From: Bacilli bacterium
GTDB lineage: Bacteria; Bacillota_I; Bacilli_A; RF39; UBA660
Reading direction: 5' to 3'
Length of the DNA: 32,000 bases
NCBI GenBank assembly: GCA_017527675.1
Contig: JAFXPU010000023.1
Location: forward strand, 6,052 to 38,051
Shown: positions 18,019 through 32,000 of the stretch, piece by piece
How positions within the stretch are numbered: the first letter of the stretch is position 1
How the letters are laid out: every line of letters begins with the position of its first letter
Program-made: the position numbers and the translations under genes
Notes under the pieces: generated by a model
What the model saw: the letters and a program-made list of their open reading frames with translations, nothing else
Told to the model about the DNA's origin: nothing
The model's database searches: none

Positions 18019-20490
18019 ATGAAAATAATTTTAAAACACATTTTAAGAAATTTAAAGGAACATAAGATGCGTGCTTTTTTAATATTCTTTTCATTACTAG
18101 TATCTACTTCGGTATTTGTTATTAGTTTAACAATTTCAGATGACTTAACTATAAAAGTAGAAGATACATTAAGAAGTGTATATGGAAATGCTGAAGTACA
18201 AGTTGCAACTGTTGATCCATTTAAACTAGATGATTTAAAAATGAATAAGGATAAATATTCATATTTAGGTATGAGTAGTTTAGATGGTGTAGATGCAAAA
18301 GAAAAACCAATATCTATTTTAGGTATGGATATTGAAAAAGCAGTTGATTTTAAATTACTTGGTAATGATGCTAAAAAACTTGCTTTAAATGAAATATATA
18401 TTAATAAAAATTTAGAGGATAAAGGTTATAAAAAAGGTCAAGTAATAAAATTAAAGTATGAAGATAAAGAATATAATTTAACTATAAAAGGTGTAATAGA
18501 AAATAAAGGTATTGCTTCTATAAGACCAGATGATGATACATTCTTTGCATCAATTGAGACAGTAAATTCTATTAAAAATATAGAAGATGGTAACTACGAC
18601 ACTATTTATTTTGATCTTAAGAATAATAATAAAATAGGTGAATTTGTTGATTATATAAAAGATCATAATGATAATTATATGGTTGCTAAAACAGTTGATA
18701 TGGAATCAATTAAAGAAGCAACAAGTATGATTAGTACTATTATGTATTTAATATTATTAATGGCAACTATCATGATTTATTTTGTTATTAGTTCATTAAA
18801 TAAAATAATCTTAGCAGAGCGTATACCAGTTATTGGAACTTTTAGATCAGTTGGGGCATCAAGAACTAAGATGAATTTAATATTAGTTTTAGAAAATGCT
18901 TTATATGGAATATTTGCTGGTTTATTTGGAGCTATTATCGGAACATATTTAGATAGTTACTGTTCATCAGTATTTATTACAGCTGATGGTATAGACGTTG
19001 CTAAATCATCTGTATCTCTTTCAGTGGGTACAATATTAATTGGTATTTTATTTGCTACATTATTACAAATTATTATTGTTGTTAAAGAAATAATAAGAAC
19101 TAATAAAAAACCAATTAAAGATTTAATATTTAATACCCAAAATTCAAGATATAAAATGCGCAAAAAAAGAACTGTAATTGGATTTATCTTATTAATATCA
19201 TCAATTATATTATTTGTGTTAATTAAAAATATAGATATGTTAACTATAGGTGTTTTACTAATATGCTTTATAGTAGGTGTTGCTAATACACTTCCTTTAA
19301 TATTCCAATTAATATCAAAATGCCTTGCCTATATATTTAAAAAGATAGGTTGGTCTACTGGTATTATTACTTCCAAAAATATTGGCTATAATAAAATGAT
19401 TATCTCATCATCACGTTTAGTTGTTATAGCTATATCACTTTTATCATCAATTATTCTGATGTCAAAAGCAACTGCTGATTGTTTTACAGGTTTTAGAGAA
19501 GTAACTAAAAATGTAGATTTAATGATATCTAATCCACATAAATCATCAGAGGAATATGATTATTTAAATGATATAGATGGTGTTAAGGAAGTGCAATTTT
19601 TAAATAGCTATTTTGCTGATGATATAACATATACTAAGGGTAAAAATAAAAATAAAAAATTCAATCTTCCTCCAGGTTTCTATGCTGAAAAGGAAAGAAA
19701 AAATGTTTATATTGAAGAAATAGATTATAAAATAAGTGATCTTAAAGATGATGAAATCTTATTTGACGAAAAATATGCTTTTAAAAATAATATTAAAAAA
19801 GGTGACAAAATAACAATGCATTTTGGAACACTTAAAAAATCATATACTTATACTGTAAAAGGATTTGTTAATGCATCCAACTTTAATGTATCAAGAAATA
19901 TGGTAGTAGTATCATACAATCATTTAATAAATGATTTAAATGGTATTCCAATGCAATTACATATTGTCTTAGATAAAGGGTACGATCCAGATGAGATGAA
20001 AGATGTTGTACATGATGCTATGAAAGAAGTAGGCATTTATGTACAAACAACAGAAGAATATATTTCTGAACAAGAAGGCCAAGTAGCAGGTATAATTGCT
20101 ATTGTATATTTAGTAATTGGTATATCAGTAACCCTTGCATTTATAGGTATTTTAAATAATCAAGTAATTGGTTTTATTAATAGACGCAAAGAAATAGCAA
20201 TTTTAAATTCTACATGCATGAATAAAACCCAAATAAAGAAGATGCTTGCTTTAGAAACAATTTTATCTAATTTCATTTCATTATTTATTGCTACAATTGT
20301 TTCATTTATAACAACAATTTTTGTAAATAATTTTATGATGAATATAGGACTTTATTTAAATATTAAATATGATTTTATGACTGTATTTAAGTTTGAATTA
20401 ATTGTATACATATTACTATTGTTAACATTATTTGTACCATTTAGAAAATTAAAAAAGATGAACATCGTTGATGAAATAAAATATGAATAG
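18019..20490 (+). CDS. ABC transporter permease, double FtsX-domain (MacB-like) type
   Basis: 823 aa. Two TM clusters, each preceded by a large soluble domain. FtsX-like loops ERIPVIGTFRSVGASRTKM and RRKEIAILNSTCMNKTQI. Confidence 0.85.
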   Translation: MKIILKHILRNLKEHKMRAFLIFFSLLVSTSVFVISLTISDDLTIKVEDTLRSVYGNAEVQVATVDPFKLDDLKMNKDKYSYLGMSSLDGVDAKEKPISILGMDIEKAVDFKLLGNDAKKLALNEIYINKNLEDKGYKKGQVIKLKYEDKEYNLTIKGVIENKGIASIRPDDDTFFASIETVNSIKNIEDGNYDTIYFDLKNNNKIGEFVDYIKDHNDNYMVAKTVDMESIKEATSMISTIMYLILLMATIMIYFVISSLNKIILAERIPVIGTFRSVGASRTKMNLILVLENALYGIFAGLFGAIIGTYLDSYCSSVFITADGIDVAKSSVSLSVGTILIGILFATLLQIIIVVKEIIRTNKKPIKDLIFNTQNSRYKMRKKRTVIGFILLISSIILFVLIKNIDMLTIGVLLICFIVGVANTLPLIFQLISKCLAYIFKKIGWSTGIITSKNIGYNKMIISSSRLVVIAISLLSSIILMSKATADCFTGFREVTKNVDLMISNPHKSSEEYDYLNDIDGVKEVQFLNSYFADDITYTKGKNKNKKFNLPPGFYAEKERKNVYIEEIDYKISDLKDDEILFDEKYAFKNNIKKGDKITMHFGTLKKSYTYTVKGFVNASNFNVSRNMVVVSYNHLINDLNGIPMQLHIVLDKGYDPDEMKDVVHDAMKEVGIYVQTTEEYISEQEGQVAGIIAIVYLVIGISVTLAFIGILNNQVIGFINRRKEIAILNSTCMNKTQIKKMLALETILSNFISLFIATIVSFITTIFVNNFMMNIGLYLNIKYDFMTVFKFELIVYILLLLTLFVPFRKLKKMNIVDEIKYE

Positions 20491-20499
20491 GAGGATTAT

Positions 20500-21168
20500 A
20501 TGAGTATTATTAAAATAGATAAATTAGTTAAAAACTTCGGTAAGGGAGAAAACGAAGTAAAAGTATTAAAAGGATTAAACTTTGAAATTGAAAAAGGTGA
20601 ATTCGTATCATTAATGGGTGCATCAGGTTCTGGTAAATCGACTTTACTATATTTAATAGGCGGACTAGATAAACCAACATCAGGTACTGTTTATATTAAT
20701 GATAAAGATATAAATACCTTAAAAGAAAAAGAGATGGCTAAATTAAGAAGAAAAGATATTGGATTTGTATTTCAATTCTATAATTTGGTTCAAAATTTAA
20801 CAGTTGAAGAAAATATTATGTTACCTGTTGTTATGGATGGAAAAAAAGAAAAAGACTATAAAGATAGATTAGATAAAATATTATCAATTATAGGCTTATC
20901 TGATAAAAGAAAAAATTTACCTAATGAACTATCTGGTGGTCAACAGCAAAGAGTATCAATTGCTCGTGCGATGATCTTATCTCCAAATATTATTCTAGCT
21001 GATGAACCAATTGGTAACTTAGATTCTAAATCTGGTAAAGAAGTTATGGATTTATTTAAAAAGATTAATAAAGAAGAGGGTATTACAATATTACAAGTAA
21101 CCCACTCTGAAGAATCTGCTAAATATGGTAATCGTATTATTAGATTAAAAGATGGTGAAATAATATAA
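20500..21168 (+). CDS. ABC transporter ATP-binding protein (MacB/LolD-like)
   Basis: Walker A GASGSGKST, signature LSGGQQQRV, Walker B ILADEP. SD AGGAGG. Lies 9 nt after the permease gene. Confidence 0.92.
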   Translation: MSIIKIDKLVKNFGKGENEVKVLKGLNFEIEKGEFVSLMGASGSGKSTLLYLIGGLDKPTSGTVYINDKDINTLKEKEMAKLRRKDIGFVFQFYNLVQNLTVEENIMLPVVMDGKKEKDYKDRLDKILSIIGLSDKRKNLPNELSGGQQQRVSIARAMILSPNIILADEPIGNLDSKSGKEVMDLFKKINKEEGITILQVTHSEESAKYGNRIIRLKDGEII

Positions 21169-21170
21169 AA

Positions 21171-21196
21171 AAGATAGAAAAATCTATCTTTTTTTA
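21171..21196 (+). terminator. Rho-independent terminator after the FtsX-type ABC operon
   Basis: AAGATAGA (21171-21178) / TCTATCTT (21183-21190), loop AAAA, then a T-run. Confidence 0.7.
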
Positions 21197-21209
21197 TATT
21201 ATTCTTGTA

Positions 21210-21249
21210 AAATGTTAAATGTAGTTGACAAATTTCCAATGTTAATTGG
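21210..21249 (+). promoter_or_regulatory. Conserved element copy B upstream of the ABC-2 operon
   Basis: 31 of 40 positions identical to 17930-17969 by hand alignment, including an exact 16-mer GTTGACAAATTTCCAA (21224-21239) and the dyad CCAA-N6-TTGG (21236-21249). Confidence 0.55.
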
Positions 21250-21295
21250 TGGTGCGCAACTAAAAAAAATGCTATATTTTTAATGAGGTGAAGAA

Positions 21296-22237
21296 ATGGA
21301 AAAGGTAATAGAAGTTAAAGATTTAACTAAAGAGTATAATAAAGGTATTAAAGCCGTTGATAATTTATCATTAAATGTTTATAAGGGTGAAATATTAGGA
21401 TTACTTGGTCCTAATGGATCTGGTAAATCAACTACAATTAATTGCATCTTATCTTTATTAAATTATAGTAAAGGATCAATTAAAATATTTGGTAAGGAAA
21501 TGAATCCAAATAGTTATGATATTAAATCACAAATTGGCGTAGTATTTCAAGATGTATCTGTATTTGATGAATTAACAGTTTATGAAAACTTGGATTATTT
21601 TTGTGGTTTATATATTAAAGATAAAAAATTAAGAAAACAATATATAGAAGATGCTATTGAATTAGTAGGATTAACAGAATTTAAAAAATATTATCCAAAA
21701 CAATTATCAGGTGGTTTATTAAGAAGATTAAATATAGCTTGTGGTATAGCTCATAAACCAAAATTAATATTCTTTGATGAACCGACTGTAGCAGTTGATC
21801 CACAAAGCCGTAATAACATCTTAAATGGTATTAAAAAATTAAGAGATAATGGAGCCACTATCGTTTATACTACTCATTATATGGAAGAAGTTGAAACATT
21901 GTGTGATCGTATTATTATCTTAGATAAAGGAAATATTTTAGCAAGAGGTACTTCTGATGAATTAAAAGAATTAGCTGAGATAGAAGAAAAGATTACTGTT
22001 GAAGTCAATAACTTGGATGTTAAATATATTGAAAAAATATCTGAATTAAAAAATGTTGATGTTGTTACTTATAGTGCTAATACCTTATTAATAACTTATA
22101 AAAAAGGCAAAAATAATATTTCTGATATGGTAGAGTTTTTAAAGAATAATAAAATTAAATATAATAAAATATTCTCTGAACGTCCAACTCTAAATGATGT
22201 GTTCTTGGAATTAACTGGTAAGGAATTAAGAGATTAA
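21296..22237 (+). CDS. ABC transporter ATP-binding protein (ABC-2/DrrA-like subfamily)
   Basis: Walker A GPNGSGKST, signature LSGGLLRR, Walker B LIFFDEPT. About 90-aa C-terminal extension. Confidence 0.9.
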   Translation: MEKVIEVKDLTKEYNKGIKAVDNLSLNVYKGEILGLLGPNGSGKSTTINCILSLLNYSKGSIKIFGKEMNPNSYDIKSQIGVVFQDVSVFDELTVYENLDYFCGLYIKDKKLRKQYIEDAIELVGLTEFKKYYPKQLSGGLLRRLNIACGIAHKPKLIFFDEPTVAVDPQSRNNILNGIKKLRDNGATIVYTTHYMEEVETLCDRIIILDKGNILARGTSDELKELAEIEEKITVEVNNLDVKYIEKISELKNVDVVTYSANTLLITYKKGKNNISDMVEFLKNNKIKYNKIFSERPTLNDVFLELTGKELRD

Positions 22238-23385
22238 TGTTTTTACATAATTTTAAATATACATTTAAAACACTATTTAGAAATAGAGGATTAATATTTT
22301 GGACAGTTGCCTTTCCAGTTATAATGGCCACTTTCTTTCATATGGCTTTTGCTGATATTATTGAAAGTGATAAATTAAAAGTTATTGATATGGCTATTGT
22401 TTCAAATGAAGAATTTGAAAACAATATATTATATAAAAAGACATTTACAAGTTTATCTGATGAAAAGAATAAAGATAGATTATTTAATATTACTTATACA
22501 AGTAAAGATAAAGCAAAAAAATTATTAGAAGATGATAAGATAGAAGGATATTTAGAACTTAAAAATAATAAACCATATCTTACATTTCAAGCTAATGGTA
22601 TAAACCAAACAATTATTAAATATGTAGTTGATGAAGTACATGATACAGAAAAAATATTTTTAATGAATGCTGATTTAGATAATAGTTTAGGTACTATTTC
22701 AGCTGATATAGAAAATTATTTAAATAATAATAAAGTTGAACTTAAAAACATAGCTAATTCTAATTTAAATTATATGATGATTGAATATTACACTTTAATA
22801 GCTATGACCTGTTTATATGCAGGTTGTCTTGGTATGGTTGCTATTGATAATTCACTTCCATATTTAAAAGGTAATGGAAAAAGAATAACAGTATCACCAA
22901 CTAAAAAGATATCTATTATATTAAGTAGTTTATTAGCAGGTTATATAGTTCAATTAATCTCTTTAGGTTTATTATTTTTCTATACAATTTGTATATTAAA
23001 TGTTGATTATGGAAATCATATTGGTCATATTATTTTATTATCATTAGTAGGATCAATTGCTGGTATTTCTTTAGGCGTTTTAGTAGGTGCTTATATTAAG
23101 GCTAGTGATAATGTTAAATCTGGTATTTTAATTGCTATTACCATGGCAGGATGTTTCTTAGCTGGTATTATGGGTGTTGGCATGAAATACGTCATTGATA
23201 AAAACTTACCATTACTTAATAAAATAAATCCGGCAAATATGATTACAGATGGATTTTACTCATTATATTACTATACAGATTTTCATAGATATTGGATTGA
23301 TATAATTAGTCTATTAATATTTACATTAATAACAATAATATTATCATGTAATAAGATAGGGAGGGCTAAATATGACAGTATTTAA
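22237..23385 (+). CDS. ABC-2 type transporter permease
   Basis: 382 aa. One N-terminal TM, a large loop, then about 5 C-terminal TMs. Start overlaps the upstream stop (TAATG). Confidence 0.8.
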   Translation: MFLHNFKYTFKTLFRNRGLIFWTVAFPVIMATFFHMAFADIIESDKLKVIDMAIVSNEEFENNILYKKTFTSLSDEKNKDRLFNITYTSKDKAKKLLEDDKIEGYLELKNNKPYLTFQANGINQTIIKYVVDEVHDTEKIFLMNADLDNSLGTISADIENYLNNNKVELKNIANSNLNYMMIEYYTLIAMTCLYAGCLGMVAIDNSLPYLKGNGKRITVSPTKKISIILSSLLAGYIVQLISLGLLFFYTICILNVDYGNHIGHIILLSLVGSIAGISLGVLVGAYIKASDNVKSGILIAITMAGCFLAGIMGVGMKYVIDKNLPLLNKINPANMITDGFYSLYYYTDFHRYWIDIISLLIFTLITIILSCNKIGRAKYDSI

Positions 23386-24520
23386 AACATACCTTAAGAT
23401 ATTACGCAAAAACATCGTAATGGTTATCATATTTACTTTCTTATTAGTCTTATTTGGTGGTTTAAGCATGAGTTCGCAAGATAAATCATTATCTTTTTCA
23501 GCTATTAAACCTGATATTATAATTATAAATAATGATGAGAAGATAGGTATTACAAAAGGATTTATAGATTATTTAAAAGAAAATAGTAATACACCTAGTG
23601 TAAAAAATACAGAAGAAGCTTTAAATGATGCATTATTTTATAATGATACAGACTATATTATTTATATACCAAAAGGTTTTAATGAAGATTTTATGAGTGG
23701 CAAGATAGATCATATAGATGTTAAAAAAGCTGATAATTTTAACGCATCATATTCAGATATGCTGATTAATAGATATTTAAATATAGCATCTATTTATAAA
23801 GATAAAGTAAGTAACCAAGATGAATTAGTAAAAGTAGTAAATAAAACACTAAAAAATGATACAAAGATTAATATAACTACTAAATTAGATACAACTAGTT
23901 TAGAAAAAGCTCAATTCTTTTTTGATTTTGAAAGTTATAGTATGTTAGTATGTTTAATATTTATTATTAGCTTAATACTATCTATTTTTAATGAAGAAAA
24001 AATAAGAAAGAGAAATGTTATAAGTAGTAGTAGTTATAAAAGAAATAATCGTATTTTATTGCTAGCTAATTTGTTATATGCTTTTGTCCTTTGGATAATA
24101 TATTTTGGTTTAGCTTTAATATTATTAGGTGATATCATATGGACAAGTAATGGTATATTATATGTTATTAATTCCTTTGTTCATTTAATTACAATTACTA
24201 GTTTAGCTTTCTTAATAGGTAATGTAGTAACAAATAAAGATGCTGTAAATGGCATTACAAATATTATTGCTTTAGGTACATCTTTTTTCTGTGGTGTGTT
24301 TGTACCACTTGCATATTTACCAGATAGTGTTATTAAAATAGCACATTGTTTACCAACATATTACTATGTTAAATCAAATAGTATTATAACTAGTTTAGAA
24401 GAAATTAATTTTAATACATTACAACCAGTTTTAATCAATATGGCTATTTTAATTAGTTTTGCTATTTTATTTGTAATCTTAAGTAATATAGTATCAAATA
24501 AAAGAAGAAAAATAGGATAA
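23372..24520 (+). CDS. ABC-2 type transporter permease (second subunit)
   Basis: 382 aa with the same topology as the preceding gene. 14-nt overlap with it. SD GGGAGGG. Confidence 0.8.
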   Translation: MTVFKTYLKILRKNIVMVIIFTFLLVLFGGLSMSSQDKSLSFSAIKPDIIIINNDEKIGITKGFIDYLKENSNTPSVKNTEEALNDALFYNDTDYIIYIPKGFNEDFMSGKIDHIDVKKADNFNASYSDMLINRYLNIASIYKDKVSNQDELVKVVNKTLKNDTKINITTKLDTTSLEKAQFFFDFESYSMLVCLIFIISLILSIFNEEKIRKRNVISSSSYKRNNRILLLANLLYAFVLWIIYFGLALILLGDIIWTSNGILYVINSFVHLITITSLAFLIGNVVTNKDAVNGITNIIALGTSFFCGVFVPLAYLPDSVIKIAHCLPTYYYVKSNSIITSLEEINFNTLQPVLINMAILISFAILFVILSNIVSNKRRKIG

Positions 24521-24524
24521 AAAA

Positions 24525-24556
24525 CTTGTCAAATGATAAGTTTTTTATTTGACAAG
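24525..24556 (+). terminator. Hairpin after the ABC-2 operon
   Basis: 10-bp stem CTTGTCAAAT (24525-24534) / ATTTGACAAG (24547-24556), 12-nt loop. The T-tail is weak. Confidence 0.45.
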
Positions 24557-24576
24557 TACTATTTATTTGGTATAAA
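24549..24576 (+). promoter_or_regulatory. Putative promoter TTGACA-16-TGgTATAAA for the gene at 24602
   Basis: The -35 box (24549-24554) lies in the 3' arm of the upstream hairpin. The extended -10 ends at 24576. Confidence 0.5.
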
Positions 24577-24601
24577 ATTAGAGTACATAAGGAGGTTTGT
24601 T

Positions 24602-25066
24602 ATGGGAATAAATGGATTAAACGAGAAAGATCGTAAAGATTTAGCTATGTTATATTCATCATGTAATGAAAAACGTGATGAAATTGACCCACAAACTGCT
24701 GGATTAATTATTTTTGAAATGATGCTTCGTAAATGTCATAAATTTGGCTATGATGTTGAACTACAAAGGGTATCTCCTGATGATTCTATTTTTACTACAA
24801 GTTATATTAGTAAAGATGCTGATGGTAGTTACGTATATGTTGGTTTTGAACAAGGTGATGCAGTAGACCATATGCCAATGATATCAGTTTATGATAATGA
24901 AAAATATTCAAGTATTGAATTTTCTTTTAATGGTTTATATGAAAGTTTAAGAAGTCATAATTATACAGATGAAGAAAGAAAAAAATATGTTGATTTTATT
25001 CAATCAAAAATTGCTGAGGCAGCAGAAAAAAGAAATGAAGAATCAACTATAAAAAACAGATTATAA
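24602..25066 (+). CDS. Hypothetical acidic cytoplasmic protein
   Basis: ATG 24602 follows AAGGAGG. The track start 24533 lies inside a hairpin/promoter. No recognisable motif. Confidence 0.6.
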   Translation: MGINGLNEKDRKDLAMLYSSCNEKRDEIDPQTAGLIIFEMMLRKCHKFGYDVELQRVSPDDSIFTTSYISKDADGSYVYVGFEQGDAVDHMPMISVYDNEKYSSIEFSFNGLYESLRSHNYTDEERKKYVDFIQSKIAEAAEKRNEESTIKNRL

Positions 25067-25077
25067 TCTGTTTTTTT
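25051..25077 (+). terminator. Rho-independent terminator overlapping the stop of the gene at 24602
   Basis: AAAAACAGAT / ATCTGTTTTT stem, loop TATA, then a T-run. Confidence 0.65.
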
Positions 25078-25103
25078 ATAGTTATGTTAGAATAGGTGAA
25101 TTA

Positions 25104-25673
25104 ATGAATTTAGATGAATATAAAAAAGAAATGGAAGATATATTAGTAAATAAAAAAGAACAAATGGAAAAATGTGATCATTTATTCATTAAATTAGAAG
25201 AAGGTAAAAATTTTCAGGGATATTATTTAAAAGATTGTTATTATATGCCATGCAAAGTGGAATGTGTATTATGTGGTTTAACTAATAAATATAAAGCTGA
25301 GTCTAAATACTATGAAACTAAAGATGGTTATTTGCTTAAGCCAAACTTATTTTCTAATAGAGTTGTTAAATTAAATAATATGGTGTTTTCATCACAATTT
25401 TCAAGATATTATTCTAAAGATAAAAAGAGTTTTGATGAAAGTGTGTTTAACTTAATGAAAGATGAAGTATTAAATACTGATCATGCTATATATTTATATC
25501 GAAGAGCTGCTGATTTACGATTGGATTTTGGAAATGATGATTTATTTGAGATAATGAAAATACTAAATGATATTGATTATGAAAAATTAAAAGATATGGA
25601 TGATGATGAATTAACTAGTATAGTTATTGATAAAAGAATAAAAGTAAAAACAAAAAATAGAGGAAATAATTAA
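25104..25673 (+). CDS. Hypothetical protein with a Cys cluster (C-x4-C-x3-C-x2-C)
   Basis: 189 aa. KDCYYMPCKVECVLCG suggests a small metal-binding knuckle. SD AGGTGA. Confidence 0.6.
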   Translation: MNLDEYKKEMEDILVNKKEQMEKCDHLFIKLEEGKNFQGYYLKDCYYMPCKVECVLCGLTNKYKAESKYYETKDGYLLKPNLFSNRVVKLNNMVFSSQFSRYYSKDKKSFDESVFNLMKDEVLNTDHAIYLYRRAADLRLDFGNDDLFEIMKILNDIDYEKLKDMDDDELTSIVIDKRIKVKTKNRGNN

Positions 25674-25688
25674 TTTCTTCTATTTTTT
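25651..25688. terminator. Bidirectional terminator spanning the stop codons of two convergent genes
   Basis: TAGAGGAAAT (25658-25667) / ATTTCTTCTA (25673-25682), 10 bp with one G-T pair. A-run upstream, T-run downstream. Confidence 0.55.
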
Positions 25689-26858
25689 ATATAAAATATC
25701 AATATCAACAGTATTCTCAGTTATACCATCAATTTTACCTTCATCAGTCATTTGCCATAACATATAATCACCTTGGTAAGTTGTTTGATCAATATAATGA
25801 GCAAGCCAAATATTAGCATCGCCATAATTGGACCAAACATTTTCTAAATAAAATTTAGAAGAATATAGCATAGCATCATAGCCACCATCTTTCAAAGTTT
25901 TAGCAAAAGCTTTATAGTTTTCACCTAAAGTATGAAGTGACATATGATAAGAATTAAAATCCGTCCAATCCTCAAAATCATAACCAATTGGTAAATCTAG
26001 TTTATCACCATTTAGATTATCAATAATCCACTTAGCAGCTTTTTTAGCACCTTCGGGTGTAGAAGCATTAGTATAAACATAAACAGATACATCTAAACCA
26101 ACTTCTTTAGCTTGTTTATAGTATTCATCAAATTTCATATCCTTTTCATAATTATCATTAGCATCTTTTTGATAACCCATGCGCATTATGACAAATTCAA
26201 TTCCTGCATCTTTTACTTTTTTAAAATCAATATTACCTTGCCATCTTGATACATCTATACCAATAGATGTATTTTCATTTTTATAACTTTTTAAATCATC
26301 CATATAAACATAATTATGTACTCTTGGTTTAGAAGAAGGTAGTTCCTCTAAGACATTTAAATAACTATGATCATAATTTTCATTACCAGATGAATCTTTA
26401 ATAGTTATATCAAATTCATAAGTACCAATTTGATTTAAATTATAATCACCCGTAATTTCACAAGTAGGATTTTCGTCATAATTATCAGCAAATTGAATAC
26501 GTTCACATAAAATAACATCATCACCAATAGAAACATTTATATTCATAGGACTATAAATAAATATAGGTGGTATATCATCAATTACTTCATAAGTTAAATC
26601 ATATTTATATTTATTATCATTATATTTAAATTCTAAAGTATAGTCATGTTTACCAATAGTATCAGTATCAATTGTTTCATCATTTAATATTTCAATATCT
26701 TTATTCTTTATTAATTCCTTAGTTTGATGCTCTTCAAATACCTTAAATTGGTTTTCATTTAATTCAATTTTTACTTCATTAGGTATTATATATGGATCTA
26801 TTTTTTTACCACATCCAACTATAAGTAATAATAAAAAAAGTATATATATTTTCTTCAT
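25680..26858 (-). CDS. Lipoprotein GH25 muramidase (lysozyme) with N-terminal Ig-like (DUF5011-like) modules
   Basis: Signal peptide with lipobox LLIVGC. GIDVSRWQGNIDFKKVKDAGIEFVIMRMGY and C-terminal VDIDILY are typical of GH25. Ig-like repeats (..IGTYEFDITIKDSSGNE). Confidence 0.85.
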   Translation of the reverse strand: MKKIYILFLLLLIVGCGKKIDPYIIPNEVKIELNENQFKVFEEHQTKELIKNKDIEILNDETIDTDTIGKHDYTLEFKYNDNKYKYDLTYEVIDDIPPIFIYSPMNINVSIGDDVILCERIQFADNYDENPTCEITGDYNLNQIGTYEFDITIKDSSGNENYDHSYLNVLEELPSSKPRVHNYVYMDDLKSYKNENTSIGIDVSRWQGNIDFKKVKDAGIEFVIMRMGYQKDANDNYEKDMKFDEYYKQAKEVGLDVSVYVYTNASTPEGAKKAAKWIIDNLNGDKLDLPIGYDFEDWTDFNSYHMSLHTLGENYKAFAKTLKDGGYDAMLYSSKFYLENVWSNYGDANIWLAHYIDQTTYQGDYMLWQMTDEGKIDGITENTVDIDILYKK

Positions 26859-26945
26859 ATTAACCTCAATTCAAATTAATTATACTATATTTTTTATTTA
26901 TTTAAAATAAACCTTTAAAAATACCTTAAAGTAATATGAATTTAC

Positions 26946-26975
26946 TTGATAAATAAGTGTGAAAAATGATAAAAT
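26946..26975 (+). promoter_or_regulatory. Putative promoter TTGATA-18-TGaTAAAAT of the ATPase/VWA operon
   Basis: -35 at 26946-26951 and extended -10 at 26967-26975, in the divergent intergenic region next to the GH25 gene. Confidence 0.45.
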
Positions 26976-26994
26976 AATGATAGTAGGTGAAGGT

Positions 26995-29007
26995 ATGACA
27001 TATCTATCAGCAAAATACGGATTAATGAATAAAAAAAGTATATTTGGATTACACAAGAGTACCATTTTTAAAGGAGCTTATCATGCTGAAGCACGTCTAA
27101 CGGATTTTGCATTTGCTTTAGCTAAAGATACTAGTGGTTACCTTCATGAAAATAGTTGGATAATTATCAATGCTTCTTATCCAGGTTGTCATAAGGGCTC
27201 TGGTGATGTCATTGATAAAAATGGAAGACCTATTTTAATCTTTGATGCCAAAAATCAAATAGACAATAGTCATGGTATTAGACCAGCTATGTGTGTTGAT
27301 GAGGAAAATATAAAATTAATAAAATGTTTACCAAGTTTTATAGTTAATCAAATACCTGATGATCCTGAATATGGTAAAGTTGCAACATTTGAGTATGGAG
27401 AATATCCACAAACTATAGTTGAAGATGAACAGATTGAATTAGAAGAACAATTTCAAAATGGGAAAGTTGTAAAAACGAGAAAGGTATATTCAATTAATAG
27501 TCCTTTTGATGGCGATGGTAATCCTAATACTGATTATTCTCCAATATTTGTTAATGAATATTTCTATCAAGGAAAAAAATATGTCAGATTAGAGATACAA
27601 ACTTTAGATCATGATAGCATAGTTAAACTAATAGATGAAAAAATATGCAAAAAAAATGGTAATGTTGTATGGGTTCGTGTAGAACCTATTAAATGGCTAA
27701 TGGATTTAGAAAATAATATTATTATTTCAAAAGAAATATTAACAAGAGGAATTTCGTATCATAAGTATCCTGTTAAACCAGGCTCTTCTGAGTATGAATA
27801 CTATGAAAATACAAAAATATGTTATTTTTTTAAAAAATATTTTGCAAGTGAAATAATACCAAGTAATGTAAGTAAATTAATTAATAGTAATAATACTATT
27901 CAAAGTAATAGTAGTAATGCAAATACTAGTGCCAGTGTTAGTACTAATGATGAAGTAGGAGGAATTAATATGGCAAATAATGAAGAAGAAAAAAAGGTTA
28001 AAGAAGAAGAGTATAATCCATATGGATTAGATTTTAAGGAAGTATCAGAAGAAGAATTGATTAGAAATGCTGTTAAATCAGGTATATCAGTATTTTTACA
28101 TGGTAAATCATCAGATGGAAAAAGTGCCCGTGTAAAACAAATAGATCCTGATTGTGTCATTCTATATTTAAGAAATGAAACACCAGAAACTTTAACTGGT
28201 AAAAGTGTTTATAATGCTGATTTAGATAAGATGATTGATATTAAACCAGCTTGGTTAGTTAAATTGGAAGAAAAATGTGCAAAAGAACCAGATAAATTAC
28301 ATATTTTATTCTTTGATGAAATATCTAATGCTTTACCAACTGTTCAATCTGCAGCATTTAATATAGTTTTAGATGGTGAAGTAAATGGTAAATGGAAATT
28401 ACCAGCTAATGCTCGTATAGTAGCTGCTGGAAATGAAATTGCTGATTCTTTGGCAGCTAATCAAATTGCTGAACCATTATTCAATCGTTTTGCACATGTT
28501 TATATTAAAACATCTGTAGAAAAATGGTTAGCATGGGCAGAAAAAAGTGGTGTTATTCATCCAGCAATCTATGATTTTATAGCTTGTTATGGGGAAGCGG
28601 TTTTAAGAACTGAGTTTAATGAGAAAACATTAAATGCCGATCCAAGAAAATGGGAAATGGCATCAAGAATGTTAAATGAAACACATAATCCAAGTACAAT
28701 AACATCATTAGTCGGTGAGGAAATAACTAATAAATTTGTTGATTTCTGTACAATGGAAGTTATAGCCTTAGAAGATGTTATATCAGGTGAATGTGATATT
28801 GATCCAGATAATATTAGTAAAAAAGTTATATATGCTTCATTAATGAATTTATCTCAAGTTGATGAACAAAACTTAGAAACCGTAAGAGAATTCGTTAAAC
28901 AATTAGGTGAAGAATATGTATCAACATTTGATGCTTTATGGACTTATGGAGATAAAAAGAAAATAGAAATAATTGATAATTTAAAAAATAAAGATATGCA
29001 AAAATAA
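26995..29007 (+). CDS. AAA+ ATPase (MoxR/AAA_5-like core) with an N-terminal non-ATPase domain of about 340 aa
   Basis: Walker A GKSSDGKS (28102-28125), Walker B ILFFDE (28303-28320), sensor-1-like IVAAGNE, PLFNRF. N-domain motifs HGIRPAM, EYGEYPQ and VEPIKWL resemble the DUF6273-type pattern (from memory). ATG 26995 chosen because a TTGATA-18-TGaTAAAAT promoter (26946-26975) overlaps the upstream candidate starts. Confidence 0.8.
   Translation: MTYLSAKYGLMNKKSIFGLHKSTIFKGAYHAEARLTDFAFALAKDTSGYLHENSWIIINASYPGCHKGSGDVIDKNGRPILIFDAKNQIDNSHGIRPAMCVDEENIKLIKCLPSFIVNQIPDDPEYGKVATFEYGEYPQTIVEDEQIELEEQFQNGKVVKTRKVYSINSPFDGDGNPNTDYSPIFVNEYFYQGKKYVRLEIQTLDHDSIVKLIDEKICKKNGNVVWVRVEPIKWLMDLENNIIISKEILTRGISYHKYPVKPGSSEYEYYENTKICYFFKKYFASEIIPSNVSKLINSNNTIQSNSSNANTSASVSTNDEVGGINMANNEEEKKVKEEEYNPYGLDFKEVSEEELIRNAVKSGISVFLHGKSSDGKSARVKQIDPDCVILYLRNETPETLTGKSVYNADLDKMIDIKPAWLVKLEEKCAKEPDKLHILFFDEISNALPTVQSAAFNIVLDGEVNGKWKLPANARIVAAGNEIADSLAANQIAEPLFNRFAHVYIKTSVEKWLAWAEKSGVIHPAIYDFIACYGEAVLRTEFNEKTLNADPRKWEMASRMLNETHNPSTITSLVGEEITNKFVDFCTMEVIALEDVISGECDIDPDNISKKVIYASLMNLSQVDEQNLETVREFVKQLGEEYVSTFDALWTYGDKKKIEIIDNLKNKDMQK
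28090..28404 (+). repeat. ATPase-core segment duplicated at 31686-32000
   Basis: Gap-free 105-codon alignment with 85 identical residues by hand count. Long near-identical nucleotide runs around Walker A. Confidence 0.85.
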
Positions 29008-29033
29008 AACTAAAATATTGAGGTGAAGTTCCT

Positions 29034-30668
29034 ATGTATAATATAGACAGTTTAAAAAGAAAAATGTTGGTTAAATATCCCTTTTTTGGTAGTGTTGTTG
29101 TAAATGTTAAATATCAAGAAACTAAAGAAGTAGATACAGCATGTACAGATGGTAAAATTATTTACTATAATCCTGAATTTTTAAATTCATTATCATTAGA
29201 AGAGCAAATGTTTTTACTTGCTCATGAAGTATGTCATATAGCCTTTAATCATATTTTAAGAAGTGAAGGAAAGGATGCAAGATTATGGAATATAGCAACC
29301 GATGCTGTTATTAATCAGTTTTTGATGCGTGATGGTTTAAAAATGGTTGAAGGTGGAGTAGATATAGCTGAGGCTATTAACTATGATGCTGAGCAATTAT
29401 ATGAAAAATTATTAAAAGAGCAACAAGAAAAACAACAACAACAGCAACAAAATGGAAATGGTCAAGATCAACAAAAACAAGATGGTCAAGGACAAAGCGG
29501 TAATCAAGGTCAAGATGGTCAAAACCAAGGTGATCAACAAAATGAACAAGGTGAAGATGGTAAGAATCAAGAGGGAGAACAAAATAAACAAGGTGGTCAA
29601 GATCAGCAAAATGAACAAAGTAAGTCTGATCAGGTTCAAAGTAAACAACAAGGTAGTCAAGGACAAAGTGGCCAAGAAGGTAATCAGGAACAATCTCAAA
29701 ATGAAAATAGTCAAGGTGAAAATTCTACAGGTGGCGGTTCTGGATCTGAAGCAGGTAGTGCAAGTGGATCTGGAAATAGTGAAGATGAGATGGATGACCA
29801 AACTAAAAATGATGTTGGACATGATACTCATAAGATGTGGAAAGAAGCTGTAAAAAAACATAATGAGGAATTAAAGAATGCTCAAGAAAATAATAGTACA
29901 GTAGCAACAGACGAAAATGATAAAAAATCTTTTGAAGAAAAACAAAGAGAAAAAAAATTACAACATAAACAAGAAGAAATAGCTGAAAATGGTGAAAAAG
30001 AAGCTTTCAAAAAGAATAGCGAAACCAAAAAATCAATGTTTGAAGAATTAAAAGATGAACTTGCTAATCAAGCCACGTCACCAGCTGGAACAAAATCAAA
30101 AGGTGAAACTAGAAAAGTTGATGATTTAAGTACTAAAGGTTATACTCAATTAATTGATTGGCGTTATATACTAAGAGAAGCAATTCAAAGAAATGCTGAT
30201 TGGTCATATAAGAATGCGGAAATTGAAGATGGTGTTGTTTCTCCAAGATTAGAAGAATTACCAGCACCAGAAACAGAAATAGTATTAGATACTTCTGGTT
30301 CTATTTCAGATACACTTCTAAGAAATTTCTTAAGAGAATGTAAAGTTATTTTTCAAACATCAAATGTTAAGGTTGGATGTTTTGATACAAAGTTTTATGG
30401 TTTTGAAAATATAAGAACTGAAGAAGATATCGATAAAATGGAATTTAAAGGTGGCGGTGGAACTGATTTTAGGGCTGCTATTGGTGCCTTCACTGGCCGT
30501 ACAGAAAATAAAATAATATTTACTGATGGTCAAGCACCAATGCCTGATAAAGCAGTAAATGCCATCTGGGTTGTTTTTGGTGGTACTCAAATTAAACCAA
30601 AAGGAGGGCAAGTTATTGCCATAACTTCAGAACAATTAGAAAAATTAAAGGGTGGAAGAACAAGATAA
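29034..30668 (+). CDS. Putative metallopeptidase-like (DUF2201_N-type) plus VWA-like (DUF2201-type) protein with a long Q/G/N/E/K-rich insert
   Basis: YPFFGS..ACTDGKIIYYNPEF..LLAHEVCHIAFNH..WNIATDAVIN (HEVCH at 29223-29237). C-terminal MIDAS-like DTSGS (30288-30302), GGGGTDF and IIFTDGQ. SD GAGGTGA. Lies 26 nt after the upstream gene. Confidence 0.8.
   Translation: MYNIDSLKRKMLVKYPFFGSVVVNVKYQETKEVDTACTDGKIIYYNPEFLNSLSLEEQMFLLAHEVCHIAFNHILRSEGKDARLWNIATDAVINQFLMRDGLKMVEGGVDIAEAINYDAEQLYEKLLKEQQEKQQQQQQNGNGQDQQKQDGQGQSGNQGQDGQNQGDQQNEQGEDGKNQEGEQNKQGGQDQQNEQSKSDQVQSKQQGSQGQSGQEGNQEQSQNENSQGENSTGGGSGSEAGSASGSGNSEDEMDDQTKNDVGHDTHKMWKEAVKKHNEELKNAQENNSTVATDENDKKSFEEKQREKKLQHKQEEIAENGEKEAFKKNSETKKSMFEELKDELANQATSPAGTKSKGETRKVDDLSTKGYTQLIDWRYILREAIQRNADWSYKNAEIEDGVVSPRLEELPAPETEIVLDTSGSISDTLLRNFLRECKVIFQTSNVKVGCFDTKFYGFENIRTEEDIDKMEFKGGGGTDFRAAIGAFTGRTENKIIFTDGQAPMPDKAVNAIWVVFGGTQIKPKGGQVIAITSEQLEKLKGGRTR
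29410..29800 (+). repeat. Cryptic low-complexity CAA/GGT/GAT-rich coding repeat (Q/G/N/D/E/S-rich)
   Basis: Recurrent CAAGGT, GATGGTCAA and CAAAATGAACAA units. Three reading frames are open across it. Confidence 0.8.
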
Positions 30669-30683
30669 AAAGTTGGTGATCAA

Positions 30684-32000
30684 ATGATTGTACAAAATGG
30701 TAAAGTAACAATTTTTAATAAGGGACATTTAGGTAAACATGGTCCATTAGAAAGAATGTTTTCAGTAGAACCTATAGATAAAACTGTAACAATTTTAAAA
30801 AAACACTATGTTAGAAGGGTATGGCCAACAGATTTAGCCAAAATACTTGGAAGTTTTGACGATAAATATGAACATGCAACCTTATTAGGAGATCCATCTG
30901 CTAGTGGAAATGATCGTCCTCTCTTTAGATGTCTTGATGAAGATGGCAATGTATGCACAATTCGTAATTGTGAACATTTGGATGTAAGACCAATTATACC
31001 TGTTGATGTAACCAAGATGGATAAATCAGAATTAGAGAAGGATTCATTTGGATATATAGTAGTTGAATATGGTGAATATCCTCAATTATGTGGTAGATAT
31101 TGGTTTCATAAACATTTGGAAGCTTATTTTCAAGGTAGTGGCTGCTTTGAAACAGGTCGTTCATTTACCTTAGAAATAAAAGGTCAAAAAATAAAATTTC
31201 CTGAGTATTTTTGTTCCGTAAATGGAAAAAGATATATTCGTTTACCAATCGATTTGTTAAGAGGTAAAAACTGGATGGGTAATGGTGATATTGGTGGCGA
31301 TTCTATATATTTTAGAGATGTTGCTGATAATTTTGGAGCTTTATGGATAGAAGTTAAACCTATTGAATGGTTTCTTGATAAAAAGTCTGGATTACTAATA
31401 AGTTATCGTCCATTACTATCTGGATTTGCAAATAAGGGTTTTTATGATTTTGAAAATTCAGAAATATCTGGTTTTTTAAATAATGAATTTGTTAATGAAA
31501 TTAATGCAAAAATAGATTTTAGTAAATATAAACAAGTTACTGGTGAATCTCCTGAATTATCTAAAGAAGCAGCAGAAGAAGAAAAACGAAAATATCAATT
31601 TAAAAAAGTAAATCCATTTGGTTTTAAATTAGAACCTCAAACACAGGAGCAAACAATAGCAAGTGCTATGAAAGCAAGAGTAGCAGTATTTTTACATGGT
31701 AAGTCATCAGATGGAAAAAGTGCTCGTGTAAAACAAATTGATCCCGATTGCGAAATAGTTTATTTAAGAAATGCAACCCCCGAAAGTTTAAATGGTAAAA
31801 GTGTTTATAATGCTAAAACGGGTGAGATGAAAGATATTAAGCCAACCTGGTTAGTTAGATTAGAAGAAAAATGTGCTAAGGAACCCGATAAACTACATAT
31901 CTTATTCTTAGATGAAATAGCAAATGCCTTACCAAGTATTCAAGGAATAGCTTTCAATATAGTATTGGATAGAGAAGTAAATGGTAGATGGAAATTACCA
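30684..32000 (+). CDS. Second AAA+ ATPase paralog with a divergent N-terminal domain (3'-truncated by the window edge)
   Basis: Not in the supplied track because there is no stop in the window. My translation from ATG 30684 (SD GGTGATC) gives 439 codons with no stop. Walker A GKSSDGKS (31698-31721), Walker B ILFLDE (31899-31916). N-domain motifs DVRPIIP, EYGEYPQ and VKPIEWF. Confidence 0.8.
   Translation, partial: MIVQNGKVTIFNKGHLGKHGPLERMFSVEPIDKTVTILKKHYVRRVWPTDLAKILGSFDDKYEHATLLGDPSASGNDRPLFRCLDEDGNVCTIRNCEHLDVRPIIPVDVTKMDKSELEKDSFGYIVVEYGEYPQLCGRYWFHKHLEAYFQGSGCFETGRSFTLEIKGQKIKFPEYFCSVNGKRYIRLPIDLLRGKNWMGNGDIGGDSIYFRDVADNFGALWIEVKPIEWFLDKKSGLLISYRPLLSGFANKGFYDFENSEISGFLNNEFVNEINAKIDFSKYKQVTGESPELSKEAAEEEKRKYQFKKVNPFGFKLEPQTQEQTIASAMKARVAVFLHGKSSDGKSARVKQIDPDCEIVYLRNATPESLNGKSVYNAKTGEMKDIKPTWLVRLEEKCAKEPDKLHILFLDEIANALPSIQGIAFNIVLDREVNGRWKLP

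Follow-up and report, generated by a model that had tools for sequence, protein, structure and literature searches.

What are the unlike N-terminal regions of two neighbouring ATPases for, when both stand beside the same metallopeptidase-like partner? The question is raised by the last genes of a 32,000-nucleotide contig stretch (the window) from a Bacilli bacterium, an AT-rich host (26% G+C) so far known from metagenome assemblies only, whose relatives are mostly gut "uncultured Bacilli" genomes. There, two sensor-ATPase genes, g1 and g3, enclose g2, which encodes a DUF2201 protein with an HExxH domain and a von Willebrand factor A (VWA) domain. We found that these genes belong to a chromosomal five-gene operon, co-transcribed by its appearance, of four sensor-ATPases and one DUF2201 partner; that in about a third of related loci a diversity-generating retroelement (DGR) rewrites roughly 24 codons of the ATPases' N-terminal domain (N-domain) just upstream of a conserved "VRP"; and that the window lineage has no DGR and carries its variation in several paralogs, whose N-domains have diverged along their whole length.

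A five-gene operon that continues past the window

26995-29007, + strand: g1, sensor-ATPase of 670 amino acids (aa) with a variable N-domain, a low-complexity linker and an AAA+ module (open reading frame, ORF; PHROG 1297)
29034-30668, + strand: g2, DUF2201 partner of 544 aa
30684-32000, + strand: g3, second sensor-ATPase, incomplete at the window end (ORF; full length on scaffold L001)
26946-26975, + strand: promoter-like site TTGATA-18-TG-n-TAAAAT with TG extension (top-scoring match in the regional promoter scan)

The three co-directional genes are separated by 26 nt (g1/g2) and 15 nt (g2/g3), coordinates at which an earlier reading of the bare sequence (the sequence-only reading) had also arrived, and the start codon of g1 (ATG 26995) is likewise used by gene callers on public contigs. 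The reading frame of g3 starts at 30684 and runs past the window end at 32000. We completed it on a 52.8-kb scaffold (L001), which covers window positions 19034-32000 plus 8.7 kb downstream and differs from the window at 7 of 12,967 overlapping nucleotides. Full-length g3 has 641 aa (L001 11651-13576), and two further ATPase paralogs, g4 (637 aa) and g5 (632 aa), follow 3' of it on the same contig in public metagenomes. The operon order is g1-g2-g3-g4-g5, so the unit is larger than the window, whose end cuts it inside g3. The exact g2 protein is present on 11 public metagenome contigs.

Shine-Dalgarno-like sequences precede the genes (AGGTGAAGG 5' of g1, GAGGTGA 5' of g2, and a weaker GGTGA 5' of g3); the sequence-only reading had ascribed a strong ribosome-binding site to every gene. 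No terminator-like hairpin lies between the operon genes on the + strand, as had been noticed before. The promoter-like site was also seen in the earlier reading, but the region contains 33 such sites versus 33.0 expected from shuffled sequence, so the site carries no statistical weight and its place upstream of g1 is what speaks for it.

The N-domain is a retroelement target in relatives

26995-27900, + strand: variable N-domain of g1, about aa 1-300 (family alignments)
27190-27294, + strand: g1 segment homologous to the DGR variable region (VR) of relatives, not hypervariable here (alignment)
27274-27291, + strand: g1 N-domain motif GIRPAM
27394-27411, + strand: g1 N-domain motif YGEYPQ
27670-27696, + strand: g1 N-domain motif WVRVEPIKW
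30684 to about 31540, + strand: g3 N-domain, with its VR-equivalent at 30897-31001

A census with one genome per GTDB species returned 221 relatives, for which we fetched 75 loci. Most come from gut "uncultured Bacilli" or Tenericutes-labelled metagenome-assembled genomes (Clostridium sp. CAG:417, CAG:609, Coprobacillus sp. CAG:605, Ca. Faecisoma), and Clostridia contribute some, among them the isolate Zhenpiania hominis (L080). A reverse transcriptase (RT) gene lies upstream of the sensor-ATPase in 19 of the 51 related loci that extend 2.3 kb or more upstream; several relatives have intact RT frames of about 340-400 codons (stop-to-stop ORFs), and the RT of L018 matches RVT_1 at 1e-16. Across five loci (L018, L060, L043, L035, and L075), all 50 of 50 mismatches between template repeat (TR) and VR fall at TR adenines, which is the DGR signature. 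Near-identical homologs vary almost solely in ~24 residues between "WTRSDDG" and "GAVRPxL", the hypervariable block with which the VR-equivalent of g1 aligns. In this family the VR sits early in the target gene, close to its 5' end, which a published survey calls rare (PMC5758913). The non-ATPase N-terminal region that the sequence-only reading had recognised in g1 is therefore present and can now be identified as a widespread module that is a DGR target in relatives.

In the locus of homolog P0094 (L007), the elements run in the order Avd-like ORF, ~80-nt partial repeat of the target, RT, target, 130-aa truncated-AAA ORF, and DUF2201. P0094 is a very common variant, with entries in 142 index blocks of the contig collection. 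The DGR of this locus (L007 8891-9937) is decayed: its RT is split and ~250 nt shorter than intact ones, and 8 of 19 TR-VR differences lie off adenines.

The window lineage lacks all of these parts. tblastn found no RT or avd homolog in L001, none of the called genes across the window and L001 matches an RVT Pfam model, and neither sequence contains GC-rich motifs resembling a TR or an initiation of mutagenic homing (IMH) site, so that no RT, Avd, TR, or IMH was found in the roughly 41 kb available for this lineage. The VR-equivalent segments of the window genes are without the conserved GC-rich VR/IMH flanks. Over g1, g2, and the g3 N-domain, no difference separates six assemblies of this lineage that come from different samples. 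Together with the absence of RT, TR, and IMH, this makes the window genes homologs of DGR targets, not components of a DGR.

Variation is carried by mosaic paralogs

31678-32000, + strand: start of the long repeat common to g3 and the downstream g4 and g5 (exact matches on L001)

The ATPase modules of g3, g4, and g5 are 96-98% identical in protein, with longest exact DNA matches on L001 of 671 nt (g3/g5), 645 nt (g3/g4), and 882 nt (g4/g5), whereas their N-domains (~300 aa) are merely 26-32% identical to each other. The g1 module is 60-61% identical to those of g3-g5. The sequence-only reading had spoken of two N-terminally diversified ATPases; the diversified N-termini stand, but the paralogs number four, and three of them share near-identical ATPase-coding DNA.

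Two relatives share the synteny. In a close one (L090, 96% identity in DUF2201), g1, g3, and g4 have orthologs; in a more distant one (L089, DUF2201 61%) the first ATPase has no N-domain and two paralogs lie downstream. That first ATPase (L089 8929-9975) has 348 aa, the size of phage ATPases, and is the ortholog of g1 by its position and by 65% identity. In a comparison of L089, L090, and the window, the downstream ATPase modules are 93-98% identical inside a genome versus 76-78% between species, whereas N-domain distances are about equal within and between genomes. ATPase modules that are closer within than between genomes, next to N-domains that are not, indicate concerted evolution of the ATPase half; judged from these alignments, the ATPase halves of g3-g5 are probably kept near-identical by gene conversion.

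Selection follows the same division. Between the window lineage and L090, the ratio of nonsynonymous to synonymous substitution rates (dN/dS) is 0.36-0.60 for the N-domains (0.36 for that of g1) and 0.07-0.15 for the ATPase modules (0.15 for that of g1); within g2, the peptidase domain has a value of 0.06 and the VWA domain one of 0.00. A neighbouring gene encoding a glycoside hydrolase family 25 (GH25) protein has 0.10.

The array recurs in independent assemblies of different samples (L001 and L002, and partially L090). Within the repeat, L001 and L002 depart from the window and L006 at 7-8 synonymous-looking sites, and three further contigs (L003-L005) stop inside the repeated ATPase region, at window positions 31649-31732. 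Seven of the differences are third-codon-position changes at window 31739-31880, all in the g3 ATPase repeat, and at each of them the L001 g3 base equals the g4 and g5 base, a pattern that either a gene-conversion tract or a mix-up of repeats in assembly could produce.

Identity among N-domains inside an array differs from species to species: 100% in L047, which has an intact DGR, 75-88% in L026, L053, and L058, and 26-35% in the window lineage. L047 (6480-17989) encodes an intact DGR (Avd, TR, RT), then a target, the 130-aa ORF, DUF2201, and another three targets. Its 1+3 layout matches that of the window operon, yet all four N-domains and VRs are identical, which could reflect either very recent expansion or a collapse at assembly.

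A widespread N-domain related to DUF6273

The N-domain is a widespread module of ~270 aa. A profile search with it matched 2900 cluster representatives, 976 of them below 1e-30, and one search with the full sensor-ATPase protein returned > 2,700 homologs. Elsewhere, the module occurs in tandem copies, C-terminal to an ATPase, or fused to DUF4116, ankyrin, or BspA-type leucine-rich repeat (LRR_5) modules (P0241, P0246, P0388, P0008, and P0022 show such contexts). Many of the matches of 270-400 aa may be stand-alone domains or fragments.

Pfam DUF6273 (PF19789, gathering threshold 23.5 bits) scores 17.8 bits on the g1 N-domain, which is under the threshold, and the N-domains of g3-g5 have no DUF6273 match. 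In the sub-threshold matches, the C-terminal part of the profile aligns near the protein N-terminus and its N-terminal part near the end of the N-domain. When the halves of g1 were swapped in silico, the match covered DUF6273 positions 5-171 at E 0.005, with only 17.2 bits; the swap brought no gain for g4 and g5. The threshold is exceeded only over a tandem-copy junction in P0241 (full-length, 26.3 bits) and by the permuted P0010 (23.7 bits). Given the split matches, the P0241 junction, and the half-swapped g1, the best description of the N-domain is a distant relative of DUF6273 that has been circularly permuted and carries an additional beta-rich insert. Both share the motifs W-x-V-x-P-I-x-W ... 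L-x-S-G and W-W/F-T-R-S ... V-R-P, with the VR just before the VRP motif; they differ in that the window family has the two halves in swapped order and an extra ~100-aa beta-rich segment (YGEYPQ...GKKYIRI), that the window proteins score under the Pfam threshold, and that the fold match is not significant. DUF6273 has been reported as C-type-lectin-like and as a DGR target in phage receptor-binding proteins ("tentaclins") (PMC10743442).

Sequence and profile searches of the PDB with the N-domain found nothing. A model of the g3 N-domain (pLDDT 79, pTM 0.80) had as its top BFVD match a DUF6273 protein, at E 0.046 and TM 0.21, which is below significance. A C-type lectin fold is not claimed for the N-domain, as this good model has no significant neighbour in the PDB or BFVD; the circular permutation may hide the likeness from a sequential structure aligner.

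A divergent, probably MoxR-like ATPase

28015-29007, + strand: AAA+ module of g1 (motif positions)
28102-28125, + strand: g1 Walker A, GKSSDGKS
28303-28320, + strand: g1 Walker B, ILFFDE
28420-28434, + strand: g1 sensor-1, VAAGN
28477-28491, + strand: g1 LFNRF, putative Arg finger
31698-31721, + strand: g3 Walker A
31899-31916, + strand: g3 Walker B

The ATPase module is probably a divergent MoxR-like AAA+ domain; its motifs are intact. Key residues of Walker A and B, sensor-1, and LFNRF are invariant across the family alignments, Walker B reading ILFFDE or ILFLDE, and PHROG 1297 ("ATPase") matches g1 residues 354-649 at 6e-44. Curated models score low: the best Pfam score on g1 is 17 bits for Sigma54_activat, under its cut-off of 20.2, AAA_5 reaches about 16 bits on homologs, under 22, NCBIfam gives no relevant match, and Pfam bpMoxR does not match the window proteins. 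The Walker motifs that the sequence-only reading had picked out in g1 are thus in place, but its AAA core is recognised by no curated AAA profile at threshold; its view of g3 as a second ATPase of the same architecture, open at the window end, was borne out by the N-domain and Walker motifs located there.

A Foldseek search with a model of full-length g1 (mean pLDDT 62) matched NorQ, of the MoxR family, with a probability of 0.98-0.99, an E of about 1e-3, and a TM (target) of 0.27; NorQ-NorD VWA complex structures occur among the matches. MCM subunits come first by E-value and generic AAA+ proteins (MCM, dynein) dominate the search, NorQ being the sole high-probability match. The assignment of g1 and g3 as ATPases, drawn from the motifs, PHROG 1297, and this low-quality NorQ-like model, is weak and is the weakest point of the analysis.

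Each of the four ATPases has a beta-rich N-domain of ~300 aa and a charged linker ahead of the AAA+ module. They are predicted to be soluble, with neither signal peptide nor membrane segment, and all five operon proteins are without hydrophobic segments. The maximum Kyte-Doolittle value (19 residues) is <= 1.24, which argues for a cytoplasmic location.

The DUF2201 partner

29034-29408, + strand: zincin-like HExxH domain of g2 (Pfam, PHROG)
29223-29237, + strand: HExxH motif, HEVCH
29409-30233, + strand: Q/E/G/K/N/S-rich linker
30234-30668, + strand: VWA domain (Pfam, PHROG)
30288-30302, + strand: metal ion-dependent adhesion site (MIDAS) motif, DTSGS

Both halves of g2 had been named correctly before. 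The HExxH domain, likened in the sequence-only reading to DUF2201_N, scores 133.8 bits with that Pfam model (cut-off 23.2; 1.2e-38), and the C-terminal VWA-like domain with its DxSGS MIDAS motif scores 50.6 bits with DUF2201 (cut-off 26.4; 2.6e-13); PHROG 1314 matches the protein at 2e-63. Among 20 homologs, H64, H68, H73, D419, S421, S423, T477, and D498 are invariant and E65 is near-invariant, so that the MIDAS pattern (D419-x-S421-x-S423, T477, D498) is complete. The minigluzincin MJ1213 is a weak PDB profile match to the HExxH region. Within the otherwise low-complexity linker of DUF2201 proteins, the motif DVGHDTH (29811-29831, g2 aa 260-266) is invariant or nearly so; it may be an extra metal site or a piece of the peptidase domain.

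PHROG 1314 and the RefSeq copies of several phage genomes call the DUF2201 homolog an "HNH endonuclease", where the GenBank originals have "metallopeptidase" or "hypothetical" (for example, NC_055784.1 versus MK301608.1 and NC_027381.1 versus KM236242.1). The HNH label looks like a propagated misannotation.

A nearly obligate pair with lineage-dependent neighbours

ATPase and DUF2201 form a nearly obligate pair in relatives: of 71 related loci with room downstream, 70 have DUF2201 immediately 3' of the ATPase, so that the genes are co-conserved, which the sequence-only reading had made a touchstone of its proposal. Copy number varies from 1 to 4 among species, and 2-4 full ATPase copies occur in 11/75 related loci. 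A scan of IMG/VR found one contig with a relative; one viral contig against 221 GTDB species, together with neighbours that are not phage genes, indicates that the family is cellular rather than viral.

A 130-aa ORF lies between sensor-ATPase and DUF2201 in 58 of the 71 loci with room (for example L007 11932-12324) and is missing in the window lineage and in a Zhenpiania-like clade. It resembles that half of an AAA domain which runs from Walker B to sensor-1, has no Walker A, and scores a sub-threshold 18.5 bits with Pfam AAA.

Upstream, the window encodes transporter- and housekeeping-type neighbours (ABC transporters, a P-type ATPase, a sulfatase-family enzyme, and small ORFs). No integrase, capsid, terminase, or tail gene was found in about 41 kb around the locus. 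Cobalamin, nitric oxide reductase (NOR), Rubisco, and carbon monoxide dehydrogenase (CODH) operons were not seen among the neighbours of the window locus, and the flanks differ in other lineages; the case that the sequence-only reading had set against itself, a CobS/CobT or NorQ/NorD-type pair in a metabolic operon, is therefore not what we found.

Divergent from g1 and directly upstream of it is a gene for a 392-aa predicted lipoprotein with a C-terminal GH25 muramidase domain (25680-26858, - strand), which is kept at the same position in L089 (79% identity) and L090 (96%). These two syntenic loci conserve a 154-aa ORF of the window but have no counterpart of the 189-aa Cys-rich ORF next to it (25104-25673), possibly an insertion specific to the strain.

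After g5, L001 encodes a 180-aa ORF, a PNPOx-like protein, a DUF488-like protein, a 225-aa ORF, and, about 8 kb past the window end (19747-21635), a protein of > 800 aa with a TIR domain, a predicted membrane helix (TM), and WD40 repeats. The TIR-TM-WD40 protein has weak PADLOC matches to TIR models (SAVED_TIR, ThsB), and the DUF488-like gene just upstream of it matches the PADLOC candidate PDC-M45C at 1e-6; the two may form a small defence island, which as such is syntenic in L089 only. As conserved effectors, all five of these genes were rejected because they are syntenic only in the two closest relatives, L089 and L090. The TIR-TM-WD40 gene, the candidate for an effector that, as the sequence-only reading had it, might lie downstream of the window, is thus not conserved beyond them.

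Relation to known systems

Contrary to what the sequence-only reading had supposed, the core of the operon is not undescribed: it corresponds to PHROGs 1297 and 1314 and has been described in jumbo phages as a MoxR-vWA pair whose vWA protein carries a metallopeptidase at its N-terminus, for which a role in virion assembly was proposed (Iyer et al. 2021; PMC7824862). By tblastn, 552 phage records match DUF2201 and 771 match the ATPase, mostly from N4-like and jumbo phages and at 25-33% identity. In both settings the genes are adjacent, and the ATPase module and the entire DUF2201 protein are homologous. The phage ATPases, however, have about 330-350 aa and align to query residues 305-627 only; they are without the ~300-aa variable N-domain, a DGR, or paralog arrays, and the role proposed for the phage pair is virion assembly. 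The window locus is chromosomal with no phage genes around it.

A second group comprises DGR-diversified cytoplasmic sensors on MoxR/vWA or other NTPases, which have been proposed as antigen sensors (PMC7159879, PMC10907252): the vWA-MoxR (VMAP) ternary conflict systems of Kaur et al. 2020 (PMC7159879), the "putative antigen sensors" among DGR targets of Dore et al. 2024 (PMC10907252), and the CLec-AAA ATPase targets of Candidate Phyla Radiation (CPR) bacteria, cited in the latter paper. They resemble the window family in being cytoplasmic and in linking a DGR-diversified ligand-binding domain with a vWA protein and an NTPase, MoxR-type or other, and relatives of the window have bona fide DGRs. 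The window family differs in that its variable domain is at the N-terminus of the ATPase, not at the C-terminus of a vWA or STAND protein, its VR is near the 5' end of the target, its vWA partner bears a zincin domain, and its hosts are small-genome gut-associated Bacilli, not multicellular bacteria; the window locus itself is DGR-free. No VMAP, trypsin, caspase, or effector-associated domain (EAD) third component was found among the Pfam families in the neighbourhoods of the window locus or its relatives.

MoxR ATPases act with VWA proteins, and such pairs are classically maturation factors. NorQ-NorD, CbbQ-CbbO, RavA-ViaA, and CoxD-CoxE share with the window locus an AAA+ ATPase next to a VWA protein with a MIDAS, and NorQ is the best high-probability structural match. 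The window locus, in contrast, lacks a metabolic client operon, its ATPase has diverged strongly (no AAA_3 or AAA_5 at threshold) and bears a variable N-domain, and its VWA protein has a peptidase-like domain.

In the searchable literature we found no description of the specific family, a permuted DUF6273-like sensor with an N-terminal VR on a MoxR-like ATPase with a DUF2201 partner in small-genome gut Bacilli, nor of a DGR-free gene-converted paralog array. Components and general theme are known; this architecture and the DGR-free array appear to be new.

What the operon may be for

A sensor that is DGR-diversified in relatives, fast-evolving N-domains, and cytoplasmic proteins make recognition of invaders the most likely purpose, in keeping with what has been proposed for other DGR-linked NTPase systems (PMC7159879, PMC10907252). 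We propose, with confidence that is evenly poised, a cytoplasmic recognition or conflict system of diversified N-domain sensors, AAA+ motors, and a shared VWA-metallopeptidase, with a role in defence. The N-domains would be ligand-recognition modules with differing specificities, and their ligands most likely foreign proteins of a phage or other invader. Binding would be relayed from the N-domain to the AAA+ ring, which, by analogy with NorQ-NorD, CbbQ-CbbO, and RavA-ViaA, may engage the shared VWA-metallopeptidase; engagement of this DUF2201 partner would trigger or direct proteolysis.

Several results weigh against this proposal. No conserved effector was found, the TIR-TM-WD40 gene being missing from the 75 other loci. 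PADLOC-DB v2 gave no match to g1, g2, or g3 at E up to 0.1, so the locus is not an already named defence system by this measure, as the sequence-only reading had presumed. The bare ATPase and DUF2201 pair also occurs in lytic phages, with the virion-assembly role proposed there. The MoxR assignment is weakened in that g1 and g3 stay below threshold with every curated AAA model of Pfam and NCBIfam, sequence and profile searches of the PDB returned no AAA+ relative of the ATPase, and the NorQ-like match comes from a poor g1 model. A lectin-like binding fold finds no backing in the g3 N-domain model, whose best PDB neighbour is not significant (E 0.23, probability 0.02). Finally, the exact repeat identity may be partly made by short-read assembly, as the window g3 keeps 7 differences absent in L001.

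The same architecture would serve a programmable cytoplasmic proteolysis or signalling device aimed at self proteins or small-molecule cues (stress, nutrients) instead of invaders. DGR targets have also been proposed to tune regulatory pathways (PMC7517822), and the fusions of the N-domain to ankyrin, DUF4116, and LRR modules suggest a general protein-binding role. Only context separates such a device from defence, namely the nearby TIR- and DUF488-like genes in the window lineage, along with the general argument that open-ended diversification suits open-ended ligands; we consider self-directed use unlikely.

Less probable still is a housekeeping MoxR-VWA chaperone or maturation system, in which the N-domains would be client adaptors and the HExxH domain would process or hold the client. 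The classical role of such pairs and the NorQ fold match favour it, as do a chromosomal locus that is syntenic among close relatives and overall purifying selection on all genes. However, no conserved client or metabolic operon lies beside the pair in the loci examined, where flanks are lineage-dependent; the N-domains have a dN/dS 3-8 times that of the engine, and copy number ranges from 1 to 4 among species; and an adaptor is not expected to be a target of RT hypermutation.

An origin as a phage-derived or prophage-borne module, for virion assembly or diversified receptor binding, would account for the strong PHROG matches, the hundreds of phage records, the assembly role proposed for the phage pair, and the use of DUF6273 domains as receptor-binding DGR targets in phages. 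Such an origin is highly improbable, given phage homologs that are limited to the ATPase module and have no N-domain, about 41 kb without integrase, capsid, terminase, or tail genes, a single IMG/VR contig versus 221 GTDB species, and proteins with no secretion signal.

That the array with its identical 3' halves is largely a metagenome assembly artefact and the true locus has fewer genes is hardly credible: L003-L005 do break in the ATPase repeat and L001/L002 differ from window/L006 at 7-8 sites exactly there, but four unique N-domain halves each continue in frame into an ATPase module, two scaffolds from different samples agree in gene order, L090 and L089 have orthologous arrays with divergence of their own, and arrays of 2-4 copies occur in 11/75 other species.

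One receptor family, possibly with two repertoire modes

Returning to the recognition system that we favour, we tentatively suggest, at clearly less than even confidence, that gut Bacilli and some Clostridia have one receptor-ATPase/VWA-protease family with two interchangeable ways of making a repertoire. In some species, a single receptor gene would undergo somatic hypermutation by a DGR; in the window lineage, a germline tandem array would combine highly diverged receptor domains with gene-converted, interchangeable ATPase engines and one shared protease partner.

The role of cytoplasmic DGR targets, possibly as antigen sensors, has so far been argued from comparative genomics alone (PMC7159879, PMC10907252), and an abundant family makes the question testable. 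The system is compact, with one to five genes plus one partner, and has at least one cultured host, Zhenpiania hominis; the DGR-free array offers fixed receptor variants on a shared engine as a natural comparison. If the suggestion is right, the family would offer a tractable way to learn what DGR targets inside the cell recognise; were its ligands phage proteins, it would be an immune receptor family of prokaryotes with both an "adaptive-like" and an "innate multigene" mode. It also gives a functional lead for DUF2201/DUF2201_N and for the common uncharacterised ATPase-DUF2201 pair of N4-like and jumbo phages. Should the defence reading be wrong, the locus would still be a clear case of one protein half in concerted evolution while the other half diversifies.

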